In this document: positions 5,124 through 56,693 of the stretch, piece after piece
Numbering within the stretch: position 1 is the first letter of the stretch
Layout of the letters: the number at the start of each line of letters is the position of its first letter
Assembly (NCBI GenBank): GCA_017516075.1
Contig: JAFWDS010000021.1
Coordinates: 17,151 to 81,150 of the forward strand
Direction of reading: 5' to 3'
DNA: 64,000 nucleotides
Source: Candidatus Saccharimonadota bacterium
GTDB taxonomy: Bacteria > Patescibacteriota > Saccharimonadia > Saccharimonadales > Saccharimonadaceae
Program-made: the position numbers and the translations under genes
The notes under the pieces: model-generated
Told to the model about the DNA's origin: nothing
The model's input: the letters and a program-made list of their open reading frames with translations, nothing else
Database searches by the model: none

Positions 5124-5153
5124 AAATACCCCTCGCCATGAGGGGTATTTTTT
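5124..5153. terminator. Intrinsic (probably bidirectional) terminator
   Basis: aaatacccctc-gccat-gaggggtattttt between convergent genes. Confidence 0.8.
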
Positions 5154-6444
5154 ATGCAATAATTCCCCCACCAATGCAAATCTCGCCGTCATATAATACT
5201 GCCGACTGCCCACTCGCCGGCCGCTTCACTTCGTGCTCAAAATGCAACGTTTCGCCATCAAACGTCGCAGGGATTAGGGGCGCACGATGTCTTAAGCGAA
5301 CTAAGACCTGCTTTTTCTGAAGCATAACATGATTTGAATTTTCAACACGTATATTCCTGACGTCACCGACAGGTTCGTCCCGAAGGGACGGTTCTGCCGG
5401 CTGACCAGCGTATGACGTGCTTGAAAATTCAAGTCGCGCTGAAGAAAAAGCAGGTTTAGTTCGCATAAAAACATCTTTCAGTTTTAGTTCCTTAACCCAC
5501 AAATTTTCATCATTCAGATTTTTCGACACATATACGATATTTTGCCCGACATCTTTTTTGACCACATAATACGGCAACCCATCATTTACTACGCCCTTCT
5601 CACCATCTAGATACAACCCATGCCTCTGCCCAATTGTATAAAACACCGCCCCTTCGTGAAAACCGAGCACCTTGTTGCTCTCGATTTCGCGAATCTCACC
5701 TGGTTGAGCATCGATATATTCCTTGAGAAAATCCTTCATTCCTACCTCGCCAACAAAACACACCCCCATGGACTCTTTTTTGTAAGCATTATGCAGCCCA
5801 TGCTTCTTGGCGAGCTCCTTCACCTCCGGTTTCCGCATCTCACCTATGGGAAACAAAGTATGTTCCAAAGCTTCCTCGGAAATGCGATAAAGAAAATACG
5901 TCTGATCCTTATTCTCATCTATGGCGCGCATTAGACAAGTTCGGGACGATTGCGAACTAACTGTTTGGGGGCTTCCGGAGGTTACGACCGAGGATGAGGG
6001 CGCGAGCCCCGTAACGACGGGCGCGAGCGACCCGTCCCCCAAACAGTTATGTTCGAATCGTCCTATTCTCGCATAATGCCCCGTAGCAATATAATCAGCC
6101 CCTGCCTCCATCGCTTTCTCGTAAAAGAGCTTGAATTTAATCTCTTGATTACACATTATATCTGGATTTGGCGTATTCCCGGCGCGAAACTCACGTAGCA
6201 TATATTCCACCACCTTCTCTCGATATTCTTTTTCAAAATCCCAAACGAAAAAATCAATACCGAGCTTCACTGCCACTCTCTTGGCGTCGGCCAGGTCTTC
6301 TGCCCATGGGCACTTCATGCCAGGGAGGTCTCTAGACCAGTTTTTCATATATACACCAACAACGCGATATCCTTGCTGCTTCAAAAGCAAAGTCGATACG
6401 CTCGAATCTACTCCGCCACTCATTCCAACATACGCTGTTTTCAT
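5152..6444 (-). CDS. mnmA: tRNA-specific 2-thiouridylase MnmA carrying two in-frame palindromic insertions
   Basis: SGGVDS, NPDIMCNQEIKF, ATGHYAR, KDQTYFL, KKESMGVCFVG, YTIGQRHGL, GQSAVLYDGE.C.GGG; start reassigned to ATG 6444 (MKTAYVG). Confidence 0.95.
   Translation of the reverse strand: MKTAYVGMSGGVDSSVSTLLLKQQGYRVVGVYMKNWSRDLPGMKCPWAEDLADAKRVAVKLGIDFFVWDFEKEYREKVVEYMLREFRAGNTPNPDIMCNQEIKFKLFYEKAMEAGADYIATGHYARIGRFEHNCLGDGSLAPVVTGLAPSSSVVTSGSPQTVSSQSSRTCLMRAIDENKDQTYFLYRISEEALEHTLFPIGEMRKPEVKELAKKHGLHNAYKKESMGVCFVGEVGMKDFLKEYIDAQPGEIREIESNKVLGFHEGAVFYTIGQRHGLYLDGEKGVVNDGLPYYVVKKDVGQNIVYVSKNLNDENLWVKELKLKDVFMRTKPAFSSARLEFSSTSYAGQPAEPSLRDEPVGDVRNIRVENSNHVMLQKKQVLVRLRHRAPLIPATFDGETLHFEHEVKRPASGQSAVLYDGEICIGGGIIA
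5296..5464. mobile_element. Intragenic palindromic element, family B, in mnmA
   Basis: Arms gcgaactaa(g)acctgctttttct 5296-5318 / agaaaaagcaggtttagttcgc 5443-5464; 41-bp and 73-bp blocks shared with the iscS copy. Confidence 0.85.
5945..6062. mobile_element. Intragenic palindromic element, family A, in mnmA
   Basis: Perfect 14-bp inverted repeat taactgtttggggg / cccccaaacagtta; 80-bp core (5964-6043) identical to dnaX 50649-50728. Confidence 0.9.
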
Positions 6445-6527
6445 AAGTATTATTATACCATAATATGACATAAAAATACCAAAAATCAAGTCTACTAAAA
6501 CTAACATAACCATGATATATAATAAAT

Positions 6528-8360
6528 ATGAGAAAAAGGTGTGTGCTATTTGCGATGCCAATCCCGATTATTTTGGCGATTTTTGGAATTTTGTCACAAA
6601 ACAGTGTTTTTGCTCTTACCTACTCTACCGACGTTAATGTACAGTTTACTTTTAATCCGGCTCTGCAGATAGATTTATCTTCTGCGGATCTTCTAATTTC
6701 TAATCTTTCTCCTGGCACTGCAGCTGATTCTAATGTAATAGATGTAATAGTAAAGACTAATAATATCACCGGCTATACTCTGAATGCTACAGTGGGCAAT
6801 AATACTACATATGATACCCGCGATTTAGTACATGAAGTATCTGGTTCTTCAGCTAATTTTGCTAGTATTAACTACGGCTCTAGCCTAGCTAGTCTTACTA
6901 CTGACAATACTTGGGGTTATTCTTATTCTACTGATGGTGGTACAAATTGGGAAGACTATGATGGATTGCCACTTTATAGTGATGCTACTAATATTGCTAC
7001 ACTAAAAGACTCTACTACCCCTCCTGCTACTAGTACTGGAGATGTAGTAAACTTCAAAATTGCCGCAAAAGCCAGTACTATGCAAGCTTCTGGTGATTAT
7101 AATAACGTGATTAACTTTATTGCTACAGCAAATCCTATACCCACTTTAGGTCCAGTAGCCTGCGAGAGTGGCAAAATTTGTTACAATGCTAACGTATTGG
7201 ATTCAATCGAAGTAGAAGGGACGATGGGGAAACCTACTGCAAATGCAAACACTACCACCATGCTTCTCGCATCTAACTTCAGTAGAGATGGCTATGGTTT
7301 TGCTGGTTGGAGTGATACTTACGACTATAGCGGTAACTTATATGGTCCACAGGAAGAAATCACTACTCCGGCAGATATGTCTAGCGGACTTCCGCTTTAC
7401 GCTATCTGGGTTCAATCCGCTGGCAGTATGCAGACCAGTGATGCAACTAGCGCCTGTAATAGTCTCACTGCCGCTACTCCTGGATTTAAATCTCTTGCTA
7501 GTGTCACGGCTCTTACTGATGAACGCGATGGCGAAACTTACGCCATCGCTAAACTCGCCGATGGTAATTGTTGGATGATTGAAAACCTAAGACTAGATAA
7601 TACCGCAGACCATAATTCCGATGGTACATTAGCGCAGGGTTACAATTCTAGCTTTGCTGGTCTCGCTAGCCCAGAAGCGCCATCGCTCTTCGCTAACGCA
7701 ACCACTGCAAATACTTTGTATAGTATAGATGGCTCCACCGATAAAACTATTTCTGGTAGTGATCAAGGCTACAGATTTCCACGATATAACAATGTAAATA
7801 CTCCTACTGCAGTCGCCGACAGACCGAGCAATCCCACCACTAACTCCGCAACTAATAGCACCTCAAATGCTGGCTTATATAGTTATGGTAATTACTATAC
7901 CTGGTCGGCTGCTATAGCGGACACTACGCATTATCCCACAAATAACCAATCTGTCACCAGTACTTCTATATGTCCTACCGGTTGGCGCTTGCCAAAAGGT
8001 GGCAATAAATCAAATGAGGCAAATAATGATTACTGGGCGCTTGTTGTAACTGGAATTAATGGCGGCATAAATCCATCTAATTACGATAGCGAAACTAGAC
8101 CATATTATACTAGTTCCCCTGAAGGTCCGAGTATCTCGAATGCTCTTAGAGCATACCCCAATAATATTATTTATTCCGGATATGCCGAAGGTGGTTCAGT
8201 GGAAAATCGCGGTTCAGGTGGTGGACATTGGTCGTCTACGGCGGTTTCTACTACTAATGCCTACTCTATAGTGTTTTACAGCAACTACGTTTACACGGGT
8301 ACAGGCAGTAATTCCAAGTATTTCGGAAGAACTATCCGCTGTTTTGCCCCTGGCACATAA
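6528..8360 (+). CDS. Secreted FISUMP-domain surface protein (paralog 3)
   Basis: Signal peptide, WxL-like N-domain, GYGFAGWS, LADGNCWMIENLRL, YGNYYTW, CPTGWRLP, HWSST, TIRC. Confidence 0.8.
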   Translation: MRKRCVLFAMPIPIILAIFGILSQNSVFALTYSTDVNVQFTFNPALQIDLSSADLLISNLSPGTAADSNVIDVIVKTNNITGYTLNATVGNNTTYDTRDLVHEVSGSSANFASINYGSSLASLTTDNTWGYSYSTDGGTNWEDYDGLPLYSDATNIATLKDSTTPPATSTGDVVNFKIAAKASTMQASGDYNNVINFIATANPIPTLGPVACESGKICYNANVLDSIEVEGTMGKPTANANTTTMLLASNFSRDGYGFAGWSDTYDYSGNLYGPQEEITTPADMSSGLPLYAIWVQSAGSMQTSDATSACNSLTAATPGFKSLASVTALTDERDGETYAIAKLADGNCWMIENLRLDNTADHNSDGTLAQGYNSSFAGLASPEAPSLFANATTANTLYSIDGSTDKTISGSDQGYRFPRYNNVNTPTAVADRPSNPTTNSATNSTSNAGLYSYGNYYTWSAAIADTTHYPTNNQSVTSTSICPTGWRLPKGGNKSNEANNDYWALVVTGINGGINPSNYDSETRPYYTSSPEGPSISNALRAYPNNIIYSGYAEGGSVENRGSGGGHWSSTAVSTTNAYSIVFYSNYVYTGTGSNSKYFGRTIRCFAPGT

Positions 8361-8461
8361 AAAGCATCTAGTAAACCTCCTCCCTCACCCCCCTCCCCCA
8401 TATTCCTTAGATATGATATGATTAAATCCAAGAAGGAGATTTCTAATAATAACTTAACCCA

Positions 8462-8490
8462 TTGACAATATGGGATATATGCCATATATT
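8462..8490 (+). promoter_or_regulatory. Sigma70-type promoter of the toxin-antitoxin pair, overlapped by an inverted repeat (possible operator)
   Basis: TTGACA-17 nt-TATATT; atatgg...ccatat palindrome overlapping the spacer and -10. Confidence 0.55.
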
Positions 8491-8513
8491 ATATATAGGC
8501 TGGAAAGGATACT

Positions 8514-8768
8514 ATGCCAACAGTAAGTTATTTTTATGGAATCATCATTGTGATGTATTTGCGTAGCAAGGAGCACAACCCTCCGCACATTCACGCCATC
8601 ACGCAAGATTTCGACGCGCCATTCTCTATAGAAACCGGCGAAATAATGGAAGGCATTTTTCCCAACAAAGCCAAAACTCTTGTTAAAGAGTTCATAATTA
8701 AATATCAAAAGGAATTAAAGGAGATGTGGGACAAAGAAGAATACTTCAAACTCCCACCTTTACAATAA
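8514..8768 (+). CDS. DUF4160-family protein (putative toxin)
   Basis: 84 aa, FYGIIIVMY...EHNPPHIHA motif typical of DUF4160. Confidence 0.8.
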   Translation: MPTVSYFYGIIIVMYLRSKEHNPPHIHAITQDFDAPFSIETGEIMEGIFPNKAKTLVKEFIIKYQKELKEMWDKEEYFKLPPLQ

Positions 8769-9220
8769 TGTTTCATAAAGTAATAAAACTAGAATATAAA
8801 GATAACGTTACTCTAGAAATGACTTTTCAAGATGGTAAAGTTATGCGTTATGACATGTCAGTTCTTTTTGATAAATATCCAGCACTTAAGGCTCTCAAAA
8901 ACAGAGATTTATTCCTGTCCGGTAAAATGAGTTCTTATGGCATCCGCTGGAACGATGATTTAGATATAGAAGCCGAAACTATCTATCAAGATGGCGAATT
9001 GGTTCGCACTACCAAACTCCCCATCAATTTTGAAATAGCCTATATGGTCAGCTCGGCAAGAGCTAAATCTGGTTTGTCGCAAGCAAAACTCTCCGAATTA
9101 ACCGGTATAGATCAAGCAGACATTTCCAAGATAGAAAACGGCTTATCTAATCCATCCATCTCTACGCTTGAAAGAATTGCAAAAGCTCTTCGGGCTGATT
9201 TGGAAATATCGATTAAGTAG
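8768..9220 (+). CDS. DUF2442 + XRE helix-turn-helix protein (putative antitoxin)
   Basis: TAATG coupling to upstream gene; L.F.DG..(Y)D...GI.W.DDLDI..E.IY N-domain; GLSQAKLSELTGIDQADISKIENGLSNPS HTH. Confidence 0.8.
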   Translation: MFHKVIKLEYKDNVTLEMTFQDGKVMRYDMSVLFDKYPALKALKNRDLFLSGKMSSYGIRWNDDLDIEAETIYQDGELVRTTKLPINFEIAYMVSSARAKSGLSQAKLSELTGIDQADISKIENGLSNPSISTLERIAKALRADLEISIK

Positions 9221-10604
9221 TCGCAGTTCTTTGCTTTTCTGCCTGAACTACATCGTTTATGATCTTCGCCGCTTCATGAATCTGGGCCTCGTCGTTAGTC
9301 TCACCAAGAGTAATACGAAGCGAACCTGCAATTTGCGAATCGGAAAGCCCTATTGCTTTTAAAACATGCGAACGCACGCCTTTAGAAGCCGCGCAAGCCG
9401 CCCCTGTAGCTACATATACTTCTTTTTCTTCAAGAAGGAACACTAATCGTTCCGCATCTATATTATTATAGCATATAACTGCAAAATTGTCAAGAGAGTG
9501 CTTCTTGTTGATAAGCTCATACCCCTGTAATTCTTCGAGCAAAATCTTGCGCCATGAAGCGTATTTTTTACGATTGCCGTTTAGATGCTCCTTAGCGAGT
9601 TCCACCGCCTTCGCAAACCCAATCACGCCTGACACGTTTTCCGTACCAGAGCGCAGCCCATTTTCCTGCCCACCACCCATGGTTAATGGCTTCAGTCTTG
9701 CGTCATGTGATACATACAAAGCCCCCACGCCTTTCGGTCCATAAATCTTAGCCGAGTTTAGAGTAAGTAAATCCACACCTAAACGTGCAACATTAATATC
9801 TAGTAGATTCAATGCTTGCGAAGCATCAGAATGCAGCAATAGCTGCTTCTTAATTCCCCGTTTCATTCTATCAATCTTAATCTCGCGAATAATCGAAGCA
9901 ATCTCCGCCATCGGCTGAATCGTCCCCAACTCATTATTCACCAGAGCCACGGATATCAACTCCGTCTCATCAGAAATCTTGCTTCGCAAATCTTTCAAAT
10001 CGATTAGTCCATTTGAAAGCACGCGAACACTCTGTCCTCCGTACCTCTCCGCAACGCGCCTGATGGAATCATGCTCTGTTTCCAGATATAACACGGAAGC
10101 GCGGGTGGCTGAAACCTGTTTTTTCGGATGCATAACATGATTTGAATTTTCAACACGTATATTCCTGACGGACCCGACCGCTGTAGGAGACGATGATACA
10201 GAAAGCTTGCTTTCTGTATCTAGGCGACGCCCAGCGGACGATTTGTTTTCGACAGGTTCGTCCCGAAGGGACGGTTCTGCCGGCTGACCAGTGTATGACG
10301 TGCTTGAAAATTCAAGTCGCGCATCCGAAAAAATAGGTTCAGCCAGGCCCTGCGCCTCGGTACTAAGGCATGTAAACGCCAAATTATTCGCCTCGGTTGC
10401 GCCAGCGGTAATGACGAGGTCGGATGCTTTGGCTCCTATCGCATGCGCTATCACTGCTTTGGCGGCTTCATAATCAGAAGCAACTTTTTTAGCCGGCAAA
10501 TACGCCGCACTTGGATTAAAAAAATCAACCGCAAAATACGGCTCCATCGCCTTCAAAACTTTTTCATTTACCGGCGTTGCAGCCGCATGGTCAAGATATA
10601 TCAT
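9213..10604 (-). CDS. iscS: Cysteine desulfurase (IscS/NifS group I) with in-frame palindromic insertion
   Basis: IYLDHAAATP, ITAGATEANN, VNNELGTIQP, HSDASQA, SAKIYGPKGVGAL, GGQENGLRSGTEN, ATGAACA. Confidence 0.9.
   Translation of the reverse strand: MIYLDHAAATPVNEKVLKAMEPYFAVDFFNPSAAYLPAKKVASDYEAAKAVIAHAIGAKASDLVITAGATEANNLAFTCLSTEAQGLAEPIFSDARLEFSSTSYTGQPAEPSLRDEPVENKSSAGRRLDTESKLSVSSSPTAVGSVRNIRVENSNHVMHPKKQVSATRASVLYLETEHDSIRRVAERYGGQSVRVLSNGLIDLKDLRSKISDETELISVALVNNELGTIQPMAEIASIIREIKIDRMKRGIKKQLLLHSDASQALNLLDINVARLGVDLLTLNSAKIYGPKGVGALYVSHDARLKPLTMGGGQENGLRSGTENVSGVIGFAKAVELAKEHLNGNRKKYASWRKILLEELQGYELINKKHSLDNFAVICYNNIDAERLVFLLEEKEVYVATGAACAASKGVRSHVLKAIGLSDSQIAGSLRITLGETNDEAQIHEAAKIINDVVQAEKQRTATT
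10107..10344. mobile_element. Intragenic palindromic element, family B, with nested 75-bp module, in iscS
   Basis: Arms ggctgaaacctgttttttcggatgc / gcatccgaaaaaataggttcagcc; inner hairpin gatacagaaagc-tt-gctttctgtatc. Confidence 0.85.
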
Positions 10605-11680: not shown

Positions 11681-12508
11681 CTAAATACCGAAGAGTTTTC
11701 TTGCATTTTCCGTAGTCTCCTTCTCTATAATTTCGAACTTTTCGCCTAATTTTTCGCTGAGCCACGTGGCTACCTCGCGAACATAGGCCGGTTCATTAAT
11801 TATACCACGAAATTGCTTTGGAGTCAAGAAGGGAGCATCTGTTTCTAGGAGTATCCGCTCAAGTGGCGGAGTTGGCAAAGTCGAATACGTCGCAAGACCA
11901 TTGACTCCAACATAAAACTCTGTTTCATTTAAAATCCGCTTCAAAATCTTCTTGCTATCAGTAAAAGAATGCACTACGCCTCTTAATTTCGGAAAATTCT
12001 CAATCACCGGGAAAAAATCATAAAACGCCTCTCGCACATGAAAAGAAACCGGCAAATCATTGTCGATAGCGAGCTGGCACATCTGTTCAAATAGCCGAAT
12101 CTGCGCCTCGCAATCATAATCTTCATAATGGTAATCCAGCCCCACCTCCCCAATAGCCACTAAAGAAGAGGGCCTGTCATTTATGTCTCGCTTGGGGGCG
12201 CGTCCGGCCGGCCCGTCGCCACGGGCGGCCGGCGCTACCTCTCGCGCTGCCGCGCTCCGAACCCCCCTTCGCTGAGACATAAATGCCACCCCTTCTTTAG
12301 TTGCTGCTTCCGGATGAATTCCATAAGTCCAATAAACATTATCATGGCTATTAGCAAACTCCATAGCGTTCAAGGAATCTTCGTGACTGGTACCAATGCA
12401 GATTATTTTTTTGACATCTGCTTGATGGGCTCTATTGAGCATTTCGTTTGCTTGCTTTTCGGTAAAAAACTCCCTATCGTGTAGATGACAATGTGAATCA
12501 ATTAACAT
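11681..12508 (-). CDS. tatD: TatD-family hydrolase with in-frame palindromic insertion
   Basis: MLIDSHCHL, GIHP, AIGEVGLDYHY, FHVREA, GVVHSF, LLETDAPFLTP, NEPAYV. Confidence 0.93.
   Translation of the reverse strand: MLIDSHCHLHDREFFTEKQANEMLNRAHQADVKKIICIGTSHEDSLNAMEFANSHDNVYWTYGIHPEAATKEGVAFMSQRRGVRSAAAREVAPAARGDGPAGRAPKRDINDRPSSLVAIGEVGLDYHYEDYDCEAQIRLFEQMCQLAIDNDLPVSFHVREAFYDFFPVIENFPKLRGVVHSFTDSKKILKRILNETEFYVGVNGLATYSTLPTPPLERILLETDAPFLTPKQFRGIINEPAYVREVATWLSEKLGEKFEIIEKETTENARKLFGI
12179..12284. mobile_element. Intragenic palindromic element, family A, in tatD
   Basis: 11-bp inverted repeat atttatgtctc / gagacataaat; core ggggttcggagcgcggcagcgcgagag...cccgtggcgacggg on the - strand. 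Confidence 0.85.
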
Positions 12509-12524
12509 AAAGAGATTATATCAT

Positions 12525-12704
12525 AAACTAAAAAACTAATTCGAATGAGCATTGAGTAAACCCAAGAAAGTTTTTATGGAATTTAGGAAAATTTGACTCG
12601 CGAACCCTGAAGAGAGCCGTGAGACGAGCAAATTTTCCATTAAAAATTTCATAAAAACTTTCCTGGCGTGCAATGAAGTGCGAACGAGAATAGTTTTTTA
12701 GTTT
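12525..12704. repeat. Intergenic ~180-bp imperfect palindrome between typA stop and tatD promoter
   Basis: Nested arm pairs aaactaaaaaacta/tagttttttagttt, gaaagtttttatg/cataaaaactttc, ggaaaatttg/caaattttcc. Confidence 0.8.
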
Positions 12705-15956: not shown

Positions 15957-17759
15957 TTAAGGAGAATGGGTAGATAAGCATCGAATAGAAGCGCCAGCGA
16001 CCTTGACACTATATGCTAAACCAGCACTAAAATTATCTTCTGCGACGACTAGATGGTAAGAATGGAGTTCGTCTTTAGTAGTGGATGACCAGTAAATACT
16101 CCCCGAGCCACGCCTCATTGCCGAGGCTTCATAATAAAAGCCAGAATAAAGATAATTATTAGGAAATTTTCTGAATTCTCTATTTACGGCAAATGTATCA
16201 CTACCGCTAATCTGAGAACTAGAATAAATAAAACCGAGAAGAATCGAGAATTCGCCAGACTCGCCACCAGACGGGATATGCCATCCTTCTGGACAAAGCG
16301 AAGTGTTAGAGACACTAGTATCACTCGAAGCGTGCGGAGCAGTATCTGCAATTACGGCCGCCCAAGTATAATAATTGCCATAACTATACATACCTGCATT
16401 AGTGGTGTTATTAACGGCATCAGTAGTAGTAGGTTCCTGTGGGCGATTTTCGGACGCAGATTGGTTATTCCAGTTATTATATCGCGGCATGCGGTAAGCC
16501 GGATAGCTATCGGGGCCAATACTTATGGTGTCGTTGCTGCCATCATAACTATACAAGCTGTTAGCTGAATAATTAACAGAAATTCCTGTACTTTCCGCAT
16601 TGGCCAAACCTCCAAAGTTCCCATAAGTAGCAGATGTGCCATAGCCTTGAGCTAAAGCACCATCGGAGTTATGTTCGGCAGTATTCTCCAATCTCAGATT
16701 TTCAACCATCCAACAATTGCCATCGGCGAGTTTAGCCACAGCGTAGGTCTCATTATCTCGTAAATCGGTCAAAGCGGTCACGGCTCCAACTGGCATAGTG
16801 GTATTATTCGGGCAAGTCCATCCTTGTAGACTACCAGCAGATTCCACCCAATGCGCATAAAGCGACAGACCACTATTGTTGCCAGAATAAGCACCTTCGG
16901 TGAATTCTATGTATTCCTGTGGTCCGAGAAATCCGGTACTATCAGAATAATCAAAGGTCTTGCTCCACCCAGCAAAGCCATATCCTGCGCGTGAGAAGTT
17001 AGATGCAAGAAGAGTAGCAGATGTAGGAGAAACGCCATCGGTAGTTCCAGACTCCGGAATAGTCTGACATCCCATAGTCCCCTCAACGTTAGAGCCATTT
17101 GGATAGTAGCAAATTTTACCAGCTTCGGTGGCTTGCGGGGTAGGCGGTACTTCGCTATTCGGATGCACTAAAGTATACCTCACCTTCCCTTGATAAGTCC
17201 CAGCCTGTTGTGTAGGAGAAACAAATATTGCATAAGTAGATTGTATAGTAGAACCAATCGTATTATCAGTCTGTGCTGCAAATGTCGCAACTTGTGTATA
17301 TGTACTAGGTACAGTCCTATAGCTTCCAAATCCATTTAGTATTGTTGGAGCATAAGTTCCTTCTACTGCACTTAGTTTCATTGCCCAGTTAGATGTATTT
17401 CCACTTGTAGCAGTACCAGTTATTATATTAGAAGGAGCAGGAGTATCATTTCCTTGATACACCATTTCTGTATTACCATATGTATCTTCACTATATCCTA
17501 TTGCATATACACTATATCCATCTTTATCATTACAAAATACATTAATATTTGTGAGTCCAATGTCTGATTCATATTCATTATTACGAATAGTAGCTGTATG
17601 TTCCGTATTACCACTAACCGCTTCAGACATACTACAAGACACTGGTACAGTCACATTTACTACGTCTATTACGTCGTCGGCGAAAACGCTGTGCGCAAAA
17701 ACCAACCCAGCAAATAATACAAATAACACCAATAATGCTCTACACCTCGCATTAACCAT
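15957..17759 (-). CDS. Secreted FISUMP-domain surface protein (paralog 4)
   Basis: N-domain ~96% identical (nt) to paralog 2; FISUMP motifs; start reassigned to ATG 17759. Confidence 0.8.
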   Translation of the reverse strand: MVNARCRALLVLFVLFAGLVFAHSVFADDVIDVVNVTVPVSCSMSEAVSGNTEHTATIRNNEYESDIGLTNINVFCNDKDGYSVYAIGYSEDTYGNTEMVYQGNDTPAPSNIITGTATSGNTSNWAMKLSAVEGTYAPTILNGFGSYRTVPSTYTQVATFAAQTDNTIGSTIQSTYAIFVSPTQQAGTYQGKVRYTLVHPNSEVPPTPQATEAGKICYYPNGSNVEGTMGCQTIPESGTTDGVSPTSATLLASNFSRAGYGFAGWSKTFDYSDSTGFLGPQEYIEFTEGAYSGNNSGLSLYAHWVESAGSLQGWTCPNNTTMPVGAVTALTDLRDNETYAVAKLADGNCWMVENLRLENTAEHNSDGALAQGYGTSATYGNFGGLANAESTGISVNYSANSLYSYDGSNDTISIGPDSYPAYRMPRYNNWNNQSASENRPQEPTTTDAVNNTTNAGMYSYGNYYTWAAVIADTAPHASSDTSVSNTSLCPEGWHIPSGGESGEFSILLGFIYSSSQISGSDTFAVNREFRKFPNNYLYSGFYYEASAMRRGSGSIYWSSTTKDELHSYHLVVAEDNFSAGLAYSVKVAGASIRCLSTHSP

Positions 17760-19538: not shown

Positions 19539-19693
19539 ATTTCTTTTTTTCGAAACATTTTGAAACTGCCCGATAAAAATTACAACAGTCACGGATGAGA
19601 ATCTGATACTGAAATATCAGGGCGAATCCGCCTGACCTGTTGTAATTTTTATGCGGCGCACGTTTCAACGTTGAAAAAAAAGAAATATGAATT
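19532..19693. repeat. Intergenic palindromic element, family C, overlapping ung start
   Basis: 16-bp IR ataaaaattacaacag/ctgttgtaatttttat plus 19-bp outer IR; near-identical inverted copy at 56573-56652. Confidence 0.85.
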
Positions 19694-39257: not shown

Positions 39258-39544
39258 AATCAATCCTCTCTCTATTTTCAGAACATTTACTAGATTTGGC
39301 ACGTTGTAGTCTCTACGATTTTTCAGCGTATAAGCGACCCCCTTGAGTATTACTTAAACAAGCATCGCATAAGGGTGGCAAGAATCGTAAAACGCCATAA
39401 GAACGACCGCAATTCTGCATAAAGCGCTCACATCTGCCGGATTTTGTCAAAACTATCAACAGAACAAGTCTAGCGAAGAAAACTAATGGAGTTTGTTCTA
39501 AGGAAGTAGCAAGTCAAGTTCTGAAAATAGAGTGAGGGTTGATT
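39258..39544. repeat. 27-bp imperfect inverted repeat enclosing ~230 bp of partly self-complementary sequence
   Basis: aatcaatcctctctctattttcagaac 39258-39284 / gttctgaaaatagagtgagggttgatt 39518-39544. Confidence 0.7.
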
Positions 39545-50315: not shown

Positions 50316-51753
50316 TTCTTACCTCTCCACCCATTATATCAGATATTTTTTCGAGCACAGCGTCCTTTTTTTCGCTACTAGGGTGCTCATCAGCCTCATG
50401 TATTGTAATTTTTACAAGCCCATCCGTTGCTTGCACTATGACTTTTTTATTGTTTTCTTTTGTTAGAATTGTCTTTATTATATTCCGCATCGGATAAATA
50501 TCTAGCGTATTATCGGTATAAGTGTATTTGCACTTTTTAATCTGTGAATAAACCACATCACTAAGATTCTGCACCCTCGTCAAAAACCCATCCCAGTCGA
50601 AATCGACAGATTGTGAAGGTTGATTGGACGGCAATCGCAAACTATTACTTTGGGGGCTTCCGGAGGTTACGACCGAGGATGAGGGCGCGAGCCCCGTAAC
50701 GACGGGCGCGAGCGACCCGTCCCCCAAAGTAATATGTTTGGATTGACGTCCTTCAGCCTTTCCCGGCGGTCCAGCGTATGAGGTGCTTAAAAATCCAAGT
50801 CGCGCATCCGAAGAAACAGGTTTAACCACGTTTTGAAGAGATAAAGCAACCAACAATTTCGCTTCTGGAAACGGCGCTTTTACATCGGGCAATTTAGCAA
50901 GTAATTTAATTAACGTCGGTTTCGGATTTTCAATGATTTTGGCAATGATTTCCTCTGCCAACGTCTCCGCCTTTACTCCAGACGACAACAAATCTTTCAA
51001 AAGCCCAGATATTTGCTGAGAATCGCCAGCCTCATAACAGGTCAGTAGTTTATTAATCTGTTCATCTTGCGGTAGCCCCAAAGCCTTCACGACCAGTTTT
51101 TCATCAATTAACTCGTCAGATAAGGTTGAAATTTGTTCCAAAAGCGATAGAGAGTCTCTAAATGATCCACCGCCTCGCCTCACAATTATAGAAAGAGCAT
51201 CATCCGAAATACTATAATTTTCTTTGCTGGCGACAGACTTCAGATAATCAAACATCGTTTTTGAATCAGCAAGCTTAAAAGTATAGGTCTGCGCTCTTGA
51301 AGTAATCGTTACTGGTACTTTATAAGCGTCAGTGGTCGCCATAATAAATATAGCGTGTTCGGGCGGCTCTTCTAGAGTCTTTAGAAGTGCATTGAAGGCT
51401 TCCTTAGTTAGCATATGAACTTCATCTATAATATATATTTTGTATTTTGCGTGCGTCGGCGCAATAGCGACCTTCTCGCGAAGATCCCTAATATTATCAA
51501 TCCCGCGATTACTCGCGCCATCGATTTCGATAATATCAACATATTCGTCTTCGACTTTATAATCAAAACCATTCACGGCGTGAGCAAAAATTCTCGCCAC
51601 GCTTGTTTTGCCGCAACCTCTCGGACCAATAAAAAGATATGCATGAGAAACCCGATTTTGTTCCAATGATTTAATCAAAGGCTCAGTCACTTGTGGCTGC
51701 GCAACAACATCCTCCAGCCTCGTCGGCCGATACTTTCTATATAAAGCCTTCAT
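50290..51753 (-). CDS. dnaX: DNA polymerase III subunit gamma/tau with composite in-frame palindromic insertion
   Basis: ALYRKYRP, GPRGCGKTS, EIDGASNRG, IIDEVHML, AFNALLKTLEEP, SRAQ, GSFRDSLS. Confidence 0.95.
   Translation of the reverse strand: MKALYRKYRPTRLEDVVAQPQVTEPLIKSLEQNRVSHAYLFIGPRGCGKTSVARIFAHAVNGFDYKVEDEYVDIIEIDGASNRGIDNIRDLREKVAIAPTHAKYKIYIIDEVHMLTKEAFNALLKTLEEPPEHAIFIMATTDAYKVPVTITSRAQTYTFKLADSKTMFDYLKSVASKENYSISDDALSIIVRRGGGSFRDSLSLLEQISTLSDELIDEKLVVKALGLPQDEQINKLLTCYEAGDSQQISGLLKDLLSSGVKAETLAEEIIAKIIENPKPTLIKLLAKLPDVKAPFPEAKLLVALSLQNVVKPVSSDARLGFLSTSYAGPPGKAEGRQSKHITLGDGSLAPVVTGLAPSSSVVTSGSPQSNSLRLPSNQPSQSVDFDWDGFLTRVQNLSDVVYSQIKKCKYTYTDNTLDIYPMRNIIKTILTKENNKKVIVQATDGLVKITIHEADEHPSSEKKDAVLEKISDIMGGEVRNDGGKSPF
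50625..50822. mobile_element. Composite intragenic element in dnaX: full family A hairpin (50625-50751) plus isolated family B arm (50771-50822)
   Basis: 14-bp IR tattactttggggg/cccccaaagtaata; ccagcgtatgaggtgcttaaaaatccaagtcgcgcatccgaagaaacagg matches family B right arm. Confidence 0.85.
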
Positions 51754-54650: not shown

Positions 54651-54705
54651 AATATATATTATAGCTGTAATTGCAAAATAAATCAAAGTGTGATATAATA
54701 GAAGA

Positions 54706-54780
54706 TAGTTACCAAAGACAGTGGCGGGAGAAATCCTTAATCATGCCACCGAGGCAAATTCTTGTATTGTTTGGTGACGC
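54706..54780 (+). promoter_or_regulatory. Ribosomal protein L10 leader (autoregulatory RNA)
   Basis: gttaccaaAGACAGtggc...TTAA...gccaCCGAGG...tttggtgac directly upstream of rplJ. Confidence 0.75.
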
Positions 54781-54835
54781 TATTTAACAATTAGCTAGCT
54801 CATCGACTAATATTAAAATAACCAAAGGACTTTTT

Positions 54836-55357
54836 ATGGCAATTTCAAAGGATAAAAAGAACACATTGGTTGCTGATTTAACGGAACTCTTAGAGAACGC
54901 CAAGTCTACCGTCTATGCCAAATATCAAGGCTTGACCGTAGCTGAGCTTCAAGAGCTTCGTAAAAATGCTCGCGAAGCGGGTGTGAAGATCAAAGTCGTC
55001 AAAAACCGTTTAGTGCGAGTTGCGATGAATCAAATTGCAGTCTACAAAGACACTGATACTACTGGGCTCACTGGCCAGTTACTTTACGCCATCTCTGATG
55101 ACGATGAGGTCGCTCCAGCCAAAGTCCTAGCCGAGTTTGCCAAGAAGCATAACGCCCTAGACCTCATTGGCGGGTTCAGTGATCTTGGTATTAGCTTGTC
55201 TCAGGACGAAGTCAAGTCTCTAGCTGCAATGCCAAGCAAGAACGAGCTGATCGCTCAGGTCGTCGCACAACTTCTCTCTCCAGTTACCGACTCGATTTCC
55301 GGCCTTTCTGGCGGGTTATCCGGTATCGTATCTGGGCTTGAAGCTCACGCAAATTAG
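54836..55357 (+). CDS. rplJ: 50S ribosomal protein L10
   Basis: YQGLTVAELQELRK, KVVKNRL, AAMPSKNELIAQV. Confidence 0.95.
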   Translation: MAISKDKKNTLVADLTELLENAKSTVYAKYQGLTVAELQELRKNAREAGVKIKVVKNRLVRVAMNQIAVYKDTDTTGLTGQLLYAISDDDEVAPAKVLAEFAKKHNALDLIGGFSDLGISLSQDEVKSLAAMPSKNELIAQVVAQLLSPVTDSISGLSGGLSGIVSGLEAHAN

Positions 55358-56512: not shown

Positions 56513-56535
56513 AAGCATATTATAACACGTTTATC

Positions 56536-56688
56536 AAATAATATAATTTTGGGACGATAAAATACGCGCCATATAAAAATCACAACAGATCAGGCGGACT
56601 CGCCCTGATATTTCAGTATCAGATTCTCGTCCGTGACTGTTGTAATTTTTATTGGGCGATTTTATATGTCCCAAGAATTATATTATTT
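56536..56688. repeat. Intergenic palindromic element, family C, downstream of rplA
   Basis: ~150-bp imperfect hairpin; core is the reverse complement of 19573-19652 with few mismatches. Confidence 0.85.
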
Positions 56689-56693
56689 GATGC

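Follow-up and report, generated by a model that had tools for sequence, protein, structure and literature searches.

Two tRNA-thiolation genes of a Candidatus Saccharimonadota bacterium, mnmA (tRNA 2-thiouridylase) and an iscS-like cysteine desulfurase gene, share a nearly identical block of sequence. The block is probably a copy of an in-frame hairpin DNA repeat, here called family B, that was copied locally and has no special link with tRNA thiolation. Both genes lie in a 64,000-nucleotide stretch (the window; positions 17,151 to 81,150 of JAFWDS010000021.1) on contig 14 of a Nanosyncoccus-like metagenome-assembled genome (MAG) of 924 kb (37 contigs, 43% G+C, 95.7% complete). A hairpin regulon for tRNA thiolation need no longer be considered, the shared block being a likely by-product of a genome-wide repeat.

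In the explanation that we favour, family B would be a modular palindromic DNA repeat of ~150–250 bp that belongs to gut Saccharibacteria (Nanosyncoccus and relatives) and occupies a limited number of permissive sites within conserved housekeeping genes, as well as intergenic DNA. In genes, the repeat would be transcribed and translated straight through in one stop-free frame, and the enzyme would survive the gain of ~45–80 disordered residues in a surface loop or domain linker. Its maintenance would be driven at the DNA level, with a conserved core, copy-specific arms that always pair with each other, and cores, arms and nested modules that are swapped among copies. mnmA and the desulfurase gene would be ancestral operon neighbours, each with a permissive site, and one core variant would recently have spread by copying or gene conversion between neighbouring sites (trmD, obg, mnmA and iscS). 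This explanation is carried by where the copies lie, the frame that they use, the recurrence of their sites, their conservation at the nucleotide level, their chimerism and their local clustering, and what we infer is their translation, the copying mechanism and the tolerance of the inserts by the enzymes.

A hairpin repeat is shared by mnmA and the desulfurase gene

The shared blocks described in an earlier note on this DNA were recovered at the same coordinates: positions 5322-5362 and 10130-10170 of the window agree without difference over 41 nt, and positions 5367-5439 and 10250-10322 have one mismatch over 73 nt. Across the family B cores, identity between mnmA and iscS was 113/114, and comparison of the two copies by BLAST gave E-values of 1e-20 to 1e-32, which rules out chance similarity by far. 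The peptides quoted in the note are present (ARLEFSSTSYAGQPAEPSLRDEPVGDVRNIRVENSNHVMLQKKQV in MnmA; ARLEFSSTSYTGQPAEPSLRDEPV...VRNIRVENSNHVMHPKKQV in the desulfurase). Its description of the outer stems also holds, in that they differ between mnmA and iscS yet are complementary inside each copy, with arms GCGAACTAAGACCTGCTTTTTCTGAAGC / GCTGAAGAAAAAGCAGGTTTAGTTCGC in mnmA and GGGTGGCTGAAACCTGTTTTTTCGGATGC / GCATCCGAAAAAATAGGTTCAGCCAGGCCC in iscS. Folded as single strands, the mnmA copy reached -87 kcal/mol (z = -11.9) and the iscS copy -121.7 kcal/mol (z = -10.3), and none of 200 shuffles was as good in either case.

Both host open reading frames (ORFs) are intact on the minus strand, and the blocks lie within coding sequence (Table 1). 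MnmA matched the Pfam families tRNA_Me_trans, tRNA_Me_trans_M and tRNA_Me_trans_C (HUP domain, E = 5e-74), was closest among solved structures to MnmA of Bacillus and Streptococcus (E = 4e-89), and keeps the PP-loop SGGVDSS and both catalytic-cysteine motifs (NPDIMCNQ and SMGVCFVG). The desulfurase was closest to solved IscS-type desulfurases (E = 2e-56) and keeps the pyridoxal-phosphate lysine motif and the desulfurase cysteine. The outermost 5 bp of the mnmA copy (GCGAA/TTCGC) are host codons (R-T ... V-R), and comparison with insert-free orthologues limited the host codons at the mnmA arms to the outermost CGAAC/GTTCG.

Copies within the genome occupy conserved genes in one frame

BLAST detected ~14 family B copies in this genome, 12 of them in long intact ORFs and two intergenic. 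Hosts were assigned by Pfam (MnmA, Aminotran_5, TrmD, Obg, DnaX, PrmC-like, TsaD and GT1) or, for the remainder, named by eye; the 12 hosts are MnmA, the IscS-like desulfurase, TrmD, TsaD, Obg, DnaX, PriA, a UvrD/PcrA-type helicase, a PrmC-like methyltransferase, the leucyl-tRNA synthetase LeuRS, PheT and a GT1 glycosyltransferase. tRNA modification accounts for four of the 12 and aminoacyl-tRNA synthetases for two. Set against the random spread over gene categories with which the earlier note had contrasted its idea, these hosts are of diverse housekeeping function and yet non-random, with a bias towards information processing.

Orientation relative to the host gene was the same in all 12 in-gene copies, and 11 of these shared one frame, with the peptide ...EPIFSDARLEFSSTSYAGQPAEPSLRDEPVGDVRNIRVENSNHVMHPKKQVSATR... 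(the exception was the glycosyltransferase copy). The core consensus is free of stop codons in only one of six frames, and this is the frame that the 11 copies use. Such use of the stop-free frame explains the frame bias and argues that the insert is translated; a removed or ribosome-skipped element would need no open frame, so that frame use speaks against excision or bypass.

The repeat is modular. In TrmD, Obg and LeuRS, arms that differ widely enclose the same core, the tip hairpin occurs as two alternative sequences that are each self-pairing, and a 4-bp core stem covaries (GTCA/TGAC, GGAC/GTCC, GCGC/GCGC or GTAA/TTAC). The GTCA/TGAC variant is found in five copies, those of trmD, obg, mnmA and iscS on contig 14 and that of leuS on another contig; four of the five fall within 22.6 kb (P = 1.5e-4, simulated random positions). 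The iscS copy is a chimera with TsaD-type arms, an mnmA-type core and a trmD-type nested module. Its arms are identical to those of the TsaD copy (C33:552-719) at 71/71 and 54/55 positions, and the only other genomic copy of its nested module is in trmD (C14:4919-4985, 88% identity). Both nested modules sit within family B copies, on opposite sides of the core. Family B copies within this genome were also more alike than orthologous copies between genomes. Because of the chimerism and the clustering of the variant, the near-identity of the mnmA and iscS cores indicates that sequence was recently exchanged among occupied sites, by local copying or gene conversion, and is no sign of a functional tie.

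The core recurs at the same sites in other gut Saccharibacteria

A pattern search with the 27-base core gave matches in more than 111 stretches. All frame, host and source counts for other genomes given here are among the matches listed. The core-bearing stretches were all from MAGs of ruminant intestine or termite gut, and nearly all were assigned to Ca. Saccharibacteria or Ca. Nanosyncoccus, with a few labelled just 'bacterium'. The 115 matches included 50 in the frame used in this genome (ORFs of at least 150 aa), 18 in one reverse frame and seven in other frames, while 40 lay outside any long ORF (i.e. about two thirds of copies were within ORFs). At least 71 host ORFs of other Saccharibacteria contained the core. 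Recurrent hosts were TatD (8), TsaD (6-8), DnaX (6), UvrD (4-5), MnmA (4), Obg (3-4) and TrmD (3), as well as several aminoacyl-tRNA synthetases, and the position of the core matched that in this genome in ~30/37 orthologous hosts.

The DnaX site of this genome was occupied by the core in orthologues of six other species (L012, L016, L038, L053, L074 and L107). At this site (~residue 323), the core was seen in three frames or orientations across species (+2, -0 and +1), and one reversed copy was seen at the Obg site. These changes of orientation suggest that the segment between the arms was inverted in place or that insertion happened more than once at the same spot.

Family B does not track the mnmA–iscS pair in relatives

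Across 29 related genomes, family B was found in neither MnmA nor the desulfurase; many of these genomes had unrelated hairpin-derived inserts at identical places, and others had nothing there. Insert sites recurred at two positions in MnmA and one in the desulfurase. Among the pattern-search loci, the family B core was present in three species at the MnmA site used here (with self-pairing arms that differed in each), in two species at the second MnmA site, and in one species at the desulfurase site. In the MnmA of a roe deer jejunum MAG (L104:3469-4830), there were two family B cores, one at each MnmA insertion site. None of the four other loci in which both genes were readable (L039, L049, L104 and L105) had family B in both, and genomes with family B in MnmA had another element or nothing in IscS.

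In six relatives (G001, G002, G004, G006, G007 and G021), only a few bases separate mnmA from the desulfurase gene directly upstream. In the present genome, the two genes are 2.65 kb apart (window 6528-9220), with two opposite-strand ORFs between them, which encode a 610-aa protein without a Pfam match and a 164-aa DUF2442 + HTH_3 (XRE-type) protein. The MnmA of one of these relatives (G006, locus L127) is free of an insert at site 2 and still codes for KQVLVR (AAGCAGGTCCTTGTTCG), which resembles the right arm of the mnmA copy described here. This empty site has a 7-bp inverted repeat (CGAACAA...TTGTTCG), possibly the footprint of a deletion or a small palindrome that was already there.

Conservation is at the level of nucleotides

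The element in MnmA was compared between this genome (G000) and L049, and was 91% identical (92% at third codon positions), against 71% identity (46% at third positions) for the rest of mnmA. Within the core, entropy at first, second and third codon positions was 0.49, 0.33 and 0.30, respectively. Because third codon positions were no more variable than first and second positions, the peptide is not the conserved thing, and conservation appears from these comparisons to act on nucleotides. Selection at the protein level on the inserted peptide was ruled out for the same reason.

Pairing did not point to the transcript. Sense-oriented copies had 107 G·U-type vs 151 A·C-type stem mismatches on the mRNA strand, intergenic copies had the same ratio (66 vs 98), and stem pairing of intergenic copies equalled that of genic copies. 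The equal pairing of intergenic copies and the lack of a G·U bias argue against an mRNA-specific structure and for a process at the DNA level; mRNA-specific structure as the main constraint was ruled out, as the wobble asymmetry tracks the element and not the transcript. No family was detected at the mnmA or iscS site with Rfam 15 covariance models at gathering score. The sole Rfam match in the window was a ribosomal protein L10 leader (54694-54845, 56.4 bits). Because the genome encodes RNase III, an effect of the long stems on mRNA stability through this enzyme is possible.

Arms and flanks are specific to each copy and pair with each other

When the outer 32 nt of each copy were compared, the mean complementarity score was 18.8 for a copy's own partner arm and 7.5 for the arms of other copies, and 94% of 121 copies were above the cross-copy 95th percentile of arm complementarity. 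Left arms compared between copies scored 9.2, against the 18.8 of own arm pairs. The ends were the least conserved part of the element, and conserved terminal inverted repeats like those of a parent insertion sequence (IS) were not seen. In 51 copies (L003-L111), the 8 nt beyond the conserved foot (GGGTCCTG...CCACCC) were inverted complements that vary by copy, such as AAAAGAAG|...|CTTCTTTT and TAGTTAAC|...|GTTAACTG; the flanks of 28 of these 51 copies paired over 4 or more contiguous bp, where chance would give 0.4%. Direct target-site duplication beyond a palindromic GC was not seen; of the 51 clear-foot copies, 18 had none and 25 had GC only. Self-pairing arms and flanks may arise if the repeat inserts at the middle of palindromes already present, the tips of older elements among them; alternatively, template switching within the hairpin may lengthen and correct the stems, or pairing may be under selection.

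Y1/RAYT (PF01797), TnpB (PF07282), rve (PF00665) and DDE_Tnp_1 (PF01609) were absent from this genome, in a search confined to these four families, where RAYT denotes the REP-associated tyrosine transposases and REP the repetitive extragenic palindromic sequences. RAYT matches were found in one of 24 genomes of the same genus.

The inserts are low-confidence segments in the MnmA model

AlphaFold2 modelling of MnmA with an alignment of 32 orthologues gave a mean predicted local distance difference test score (pLDDT) of 81.5 and a predicted template modelling score (pTM) of 0.79, and the catalytic, PRC-barrel and C-terminal barrel domains were modelled with confidence. Model residues 331-372, the family B insert, were predicted without secondary structure, at pLDDT 33-39, between the last strand of the PRC-barrel and the first strand of the C-terminal barrel. 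An insert of a second hairpin family, family A (model residues 131-165), was likewise of low confidence (pLDDT ~49). Alignments of MnmA and the desulfurase to solved structures (Protein Data Bank) were interrupted exactly at the inserts. An example of an insert-encoded peptide is LEFSSTSYAGQPAEPSLR.

Weighing of the explanations

Several points weigh against the reading of family B as a locally copied repeat to which thiolation is incidental. The hosts are strongly skewed to conserved information-processing enzymes, which is a general bias and not one specific to 2-thiouridine. Activity of the two enzymes with their inserts, and translation of the insert, are what we infer from the predicted models and frame use. 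To call the repeat mobile is likewise to reason from its distribution, as no mobilising enzyme was present among the four families searched, and a transposase could be absent from the assembly only (37-contig MAG, 95.7% complete). Finally, conservation of the element at the orthologous MnmA site greatly exceeds that of the synonymous sites of its host. For an ancient insertion this would imply that the core is under purifying selection, which is not expected of a purely selfish element, so that re-invasion or gene conversion must be assumed.

This conservation is also an argument for a general functional element, in which the core would be selected as a DNA or RNA structure that is bound or cut by a host factor (e.g. 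an RNase III or recombinase site, with a role in mRNA stability or chromosome biology) and kept at orthologous positions, with no specificity for thiolation and with arms constrained only to pair. The MnmA-site element is 91% identical where synonymous sites are saturated (third positions 46%), sites are shared across species in ~30/37 cases, structured functional elements are classically marked by a conserved core whose arms covary and are specific to each copy, the folds are very stable, and the RNase III gene is present. We still regard such an element as unlikely, given the empty sites or unrelated inserts in many close relatives, the variation by species of orientation at the DnaX site, the absence of G·U enrichment on the transcribed strand and of any Rfam match, and the signs of recent copying (copies within the genome that are closer than orthologous copies, chimeric and clustered). 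A broader form of selection is unlikely too: the hairpin modules might make up a selected nucleotide-level system of long-lived landing pads in essential genes, in which the core is recognised as a DNA or RNA hairpin by a host or mobile factor, cores are swapped, nested and flipped, and stems are kept perfect by templated palindrome correction without a known transposase. If true, this system would be a new way to maintain and move DNA within coding sequence, and possibly a global layer on housekeeping gene expression.

Control specific to the pathway, with a common hairpin in the mnmA and iscS mRNAs acting as a cis-regulatory RNA for both steps of 2-thiouridine synthesis, is very improbable, and the shared post-transcriptional control that the earlier note had put forward is not supported. 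The two genes are functionally linked and form an adjacent operon in relatives, their cores are 113/114 identical, and 4/12 hosts belong to tRNA modification; a gene order like that of the iscS-mnmA operon is found in the yrvO-mnmA pair of Bacillus subtilis. But this genome has ten other, unrelated host genes among its 12 diverse hosts and at least 71 host ORFs carry the core elsewhere. Moreover, family B is in neither gene of 29 relatives and in both genes at none of four further loci, and where MnmA carries family B, IscS holds a different element or is empty. A wobble signature specific to one strand is lacking (no G·U enrichment), intergenic copies are equally structured and paired, and the identity is accounted for by local spread. 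By reasoning, 12 hosts make 66 pairs; if functional links join ~1% of gene pairs, the odds of finding one or more among the 66 are about even, so that a single one is no surprise, and local spread favours operon neighbours. The chance explanation also offered in the note was nearly right, short of pure chance in that the two genes are operon neighbours with recurrent sites and a locally clustered variant. The sharing between mnmA and iscS adds little beyond the repeat system itself.

The very stable hairpin within essential ORFs could also be taken as a sign that the insert is removed before or during translation, as an RNA-level intron, by translational bypass (as in 'byps' or T4 gene 60) or as a mini-intein, and bacteria of the candidate phyla radiation (CPR) are known to carry insertions in rRNA genes. 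Removal is highly unlikely here. It would lift the constraint on frame, yet the stop-free frame is used in 11/12 copies in this genome and in 50 + 18 of 75 elsewhere, and the frame of the host is always preserved; no Rfam intron or ribozyme family matched, and 45-80 residues without conserved junction nucleophiles are far too small for an intein. Size, the lack of an Rfam match and the frame constraint ruled out an intein, intron or translational bypass as candidates. It is scarcely credible that the shared block is an artefact of assembly, i.e. a repeat that was collapsed or mis-joined in the MAG. The genome is in 37 contigs and repeats of ~115 nt are near read length, but both host genes are full length and in frame, and independent MAGs of other studies have the same core at the same sites (MnmA, IscS, TsaD, Obg and DnaX).

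Comparison with known repeats

The Rickettsia palindromic elements (RPEs) appear by analogy to be the closest known class, and family B is best filed as an analogue and not as a member. In the account given in PMC10969869 (Ogata et al. 2000), RPEs are short palindromic repeats that occur in frame in many housekeeping genes of a reduced genome. As far as that account goes, RPEs and family B are alike in being palindromic, multicopy and ~100-250 bp in a small, host-dependent genome, in lying in frame in unrelated housekeeping genes with a conserved peptide in a fixed frame, in an insert that is predicted to be compatible with the fold, and in the absence of a transposase of their own. Family B differs in its phylum (host Ca. 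Saccharibacteria), the likeness being one of description. Unlike RPEs, family B has termini that are not conserved, with copy-specific, self-pairing arms and flanks; it is modular and nested, with exchange of cores, arms and side-branches; it is in the reverse frame in about a quarter of in-gene copies (matches listed); and its sites are common across species and sometimes reversed.

[quoted passage not shown] MITEs (QMITEs, Correia and ERIC) resemble family B in being small and multicopy with inverted-repeat ends and in the possibility of in-frame fusions with host ORFs, whereas family B has no direct duplication beyond GC, no parent IS or transposase among the four families tested, and ends that are its least conserved part. 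An IS-derived MITE was ruled out by the unconserved ends and the lack of direct duplication, and no transposase was found among the four families searched. REPs and their bacterial interspersed mosaic elements (BIMEs) are, like family B, mosaics of hairpin modules that serve, or are inferred to serve, as DNA hairpin targets, and a bulged foot is seen in family B; however, REPs are extragenic and 20-40 nt long, and RAYT is absent here and in 23/24 genomes of the genus. A REP/RAYT system was ruled out, as 12/14 copies are in ORFs and the genome has no RAYT. Integron attC and other structure-specified recombination sites in single-stranded DNA share with family B a variable sequence with a conserved imperfect palindrome and bulged bases, which is an analogy only; attC flanks gene cassettes and needs an integron integrase.

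The 'byps' of Magnusiomyces mitochondria are mobile GC-rich hairpins in protein-coding genes that are skipped by the ribosome, independently of frame. Family B shares with them GC-rich hairpins within coding genes, but its frame constraint argues for ordinary read-through. In full-text literature on Saccharibacteria or CPR with palindromic, MITE or in-frame elements, we found no description of these repeats. The repeat thus resembles the in-frame RPEs in a different lineage of ultra-small genomes, and has properties that are absent from the literature searched: arms and flanks that are copy-specific and self-pairing around a conserved core, modules exchanged from copy to copy, and occupation of the same gene positions across species with saturated synonymous sites. 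A practical point for annotation is that unusual insertions in conserved proteins of Saccharibacteria are often copies of these repeats.

Coordinates and further repeats in the window

Table 1. Features of the window that bear on the family B copies
Feature	Position	Strand	Remarks
mnmA (tRNA 2-thiouridylase)	5152..6444	-	likely start ATG at 6444 (MKTAYVGMSGGVDSS)
mnmA, program-made ORF	5152-6561	-	reaches back to TTG at 6561
Family B hairpin repeat in mnmA	5296..5464	-	in frame, residues ~370-417 of P0001
Core block 1	5322..5362		identical to 10130-10170
Core block 2	5367..5439		tip hairpin GTCCC-gaa-GGGAC and covarying 4-bp stem GTCA/TGAC
IscS/NifS-like cysteine desulfurase (class-V aminotransferase)	9213..10604	-	Pfam Aminotran_5, E = 2e-50
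Family B repeat in desulfurase gene	10103..10350	-	complete, bulged foot (GGGT-GGC ... GCC-AGG-CCC)
Nested 75-nt hairpin module in iscS copy	~10171..10249	-	ATACAGAAAGC-ttgc-TTTCTGTAT tip; second branch; encodes ENKSSAGRRLDTESKLSVSSSPTAVG
Partial family B copy (one arm and part of core) in dnaX	50763..50824 (C14:67913-67974)	-	BLAST, 82-88% identity

The partial copy in dnaX is read as VKPVSSDARLGFLSTSYAGPPG in DnaX and adjoins a family A hairpin. Family A, with arm ends GGGGG/CCCCC, occurs at 5928-6079 in mnmA and at 50626-50751 in dnaX, with GDGSLAPVVTGLAPSSSVVTSGSPQ as the encoded peptide in both proteins. Other families of long inverted repeats were seen in the window at 12166-12297, 12562-12666, 19568-19657, 39258-39544 and 56533-56691.

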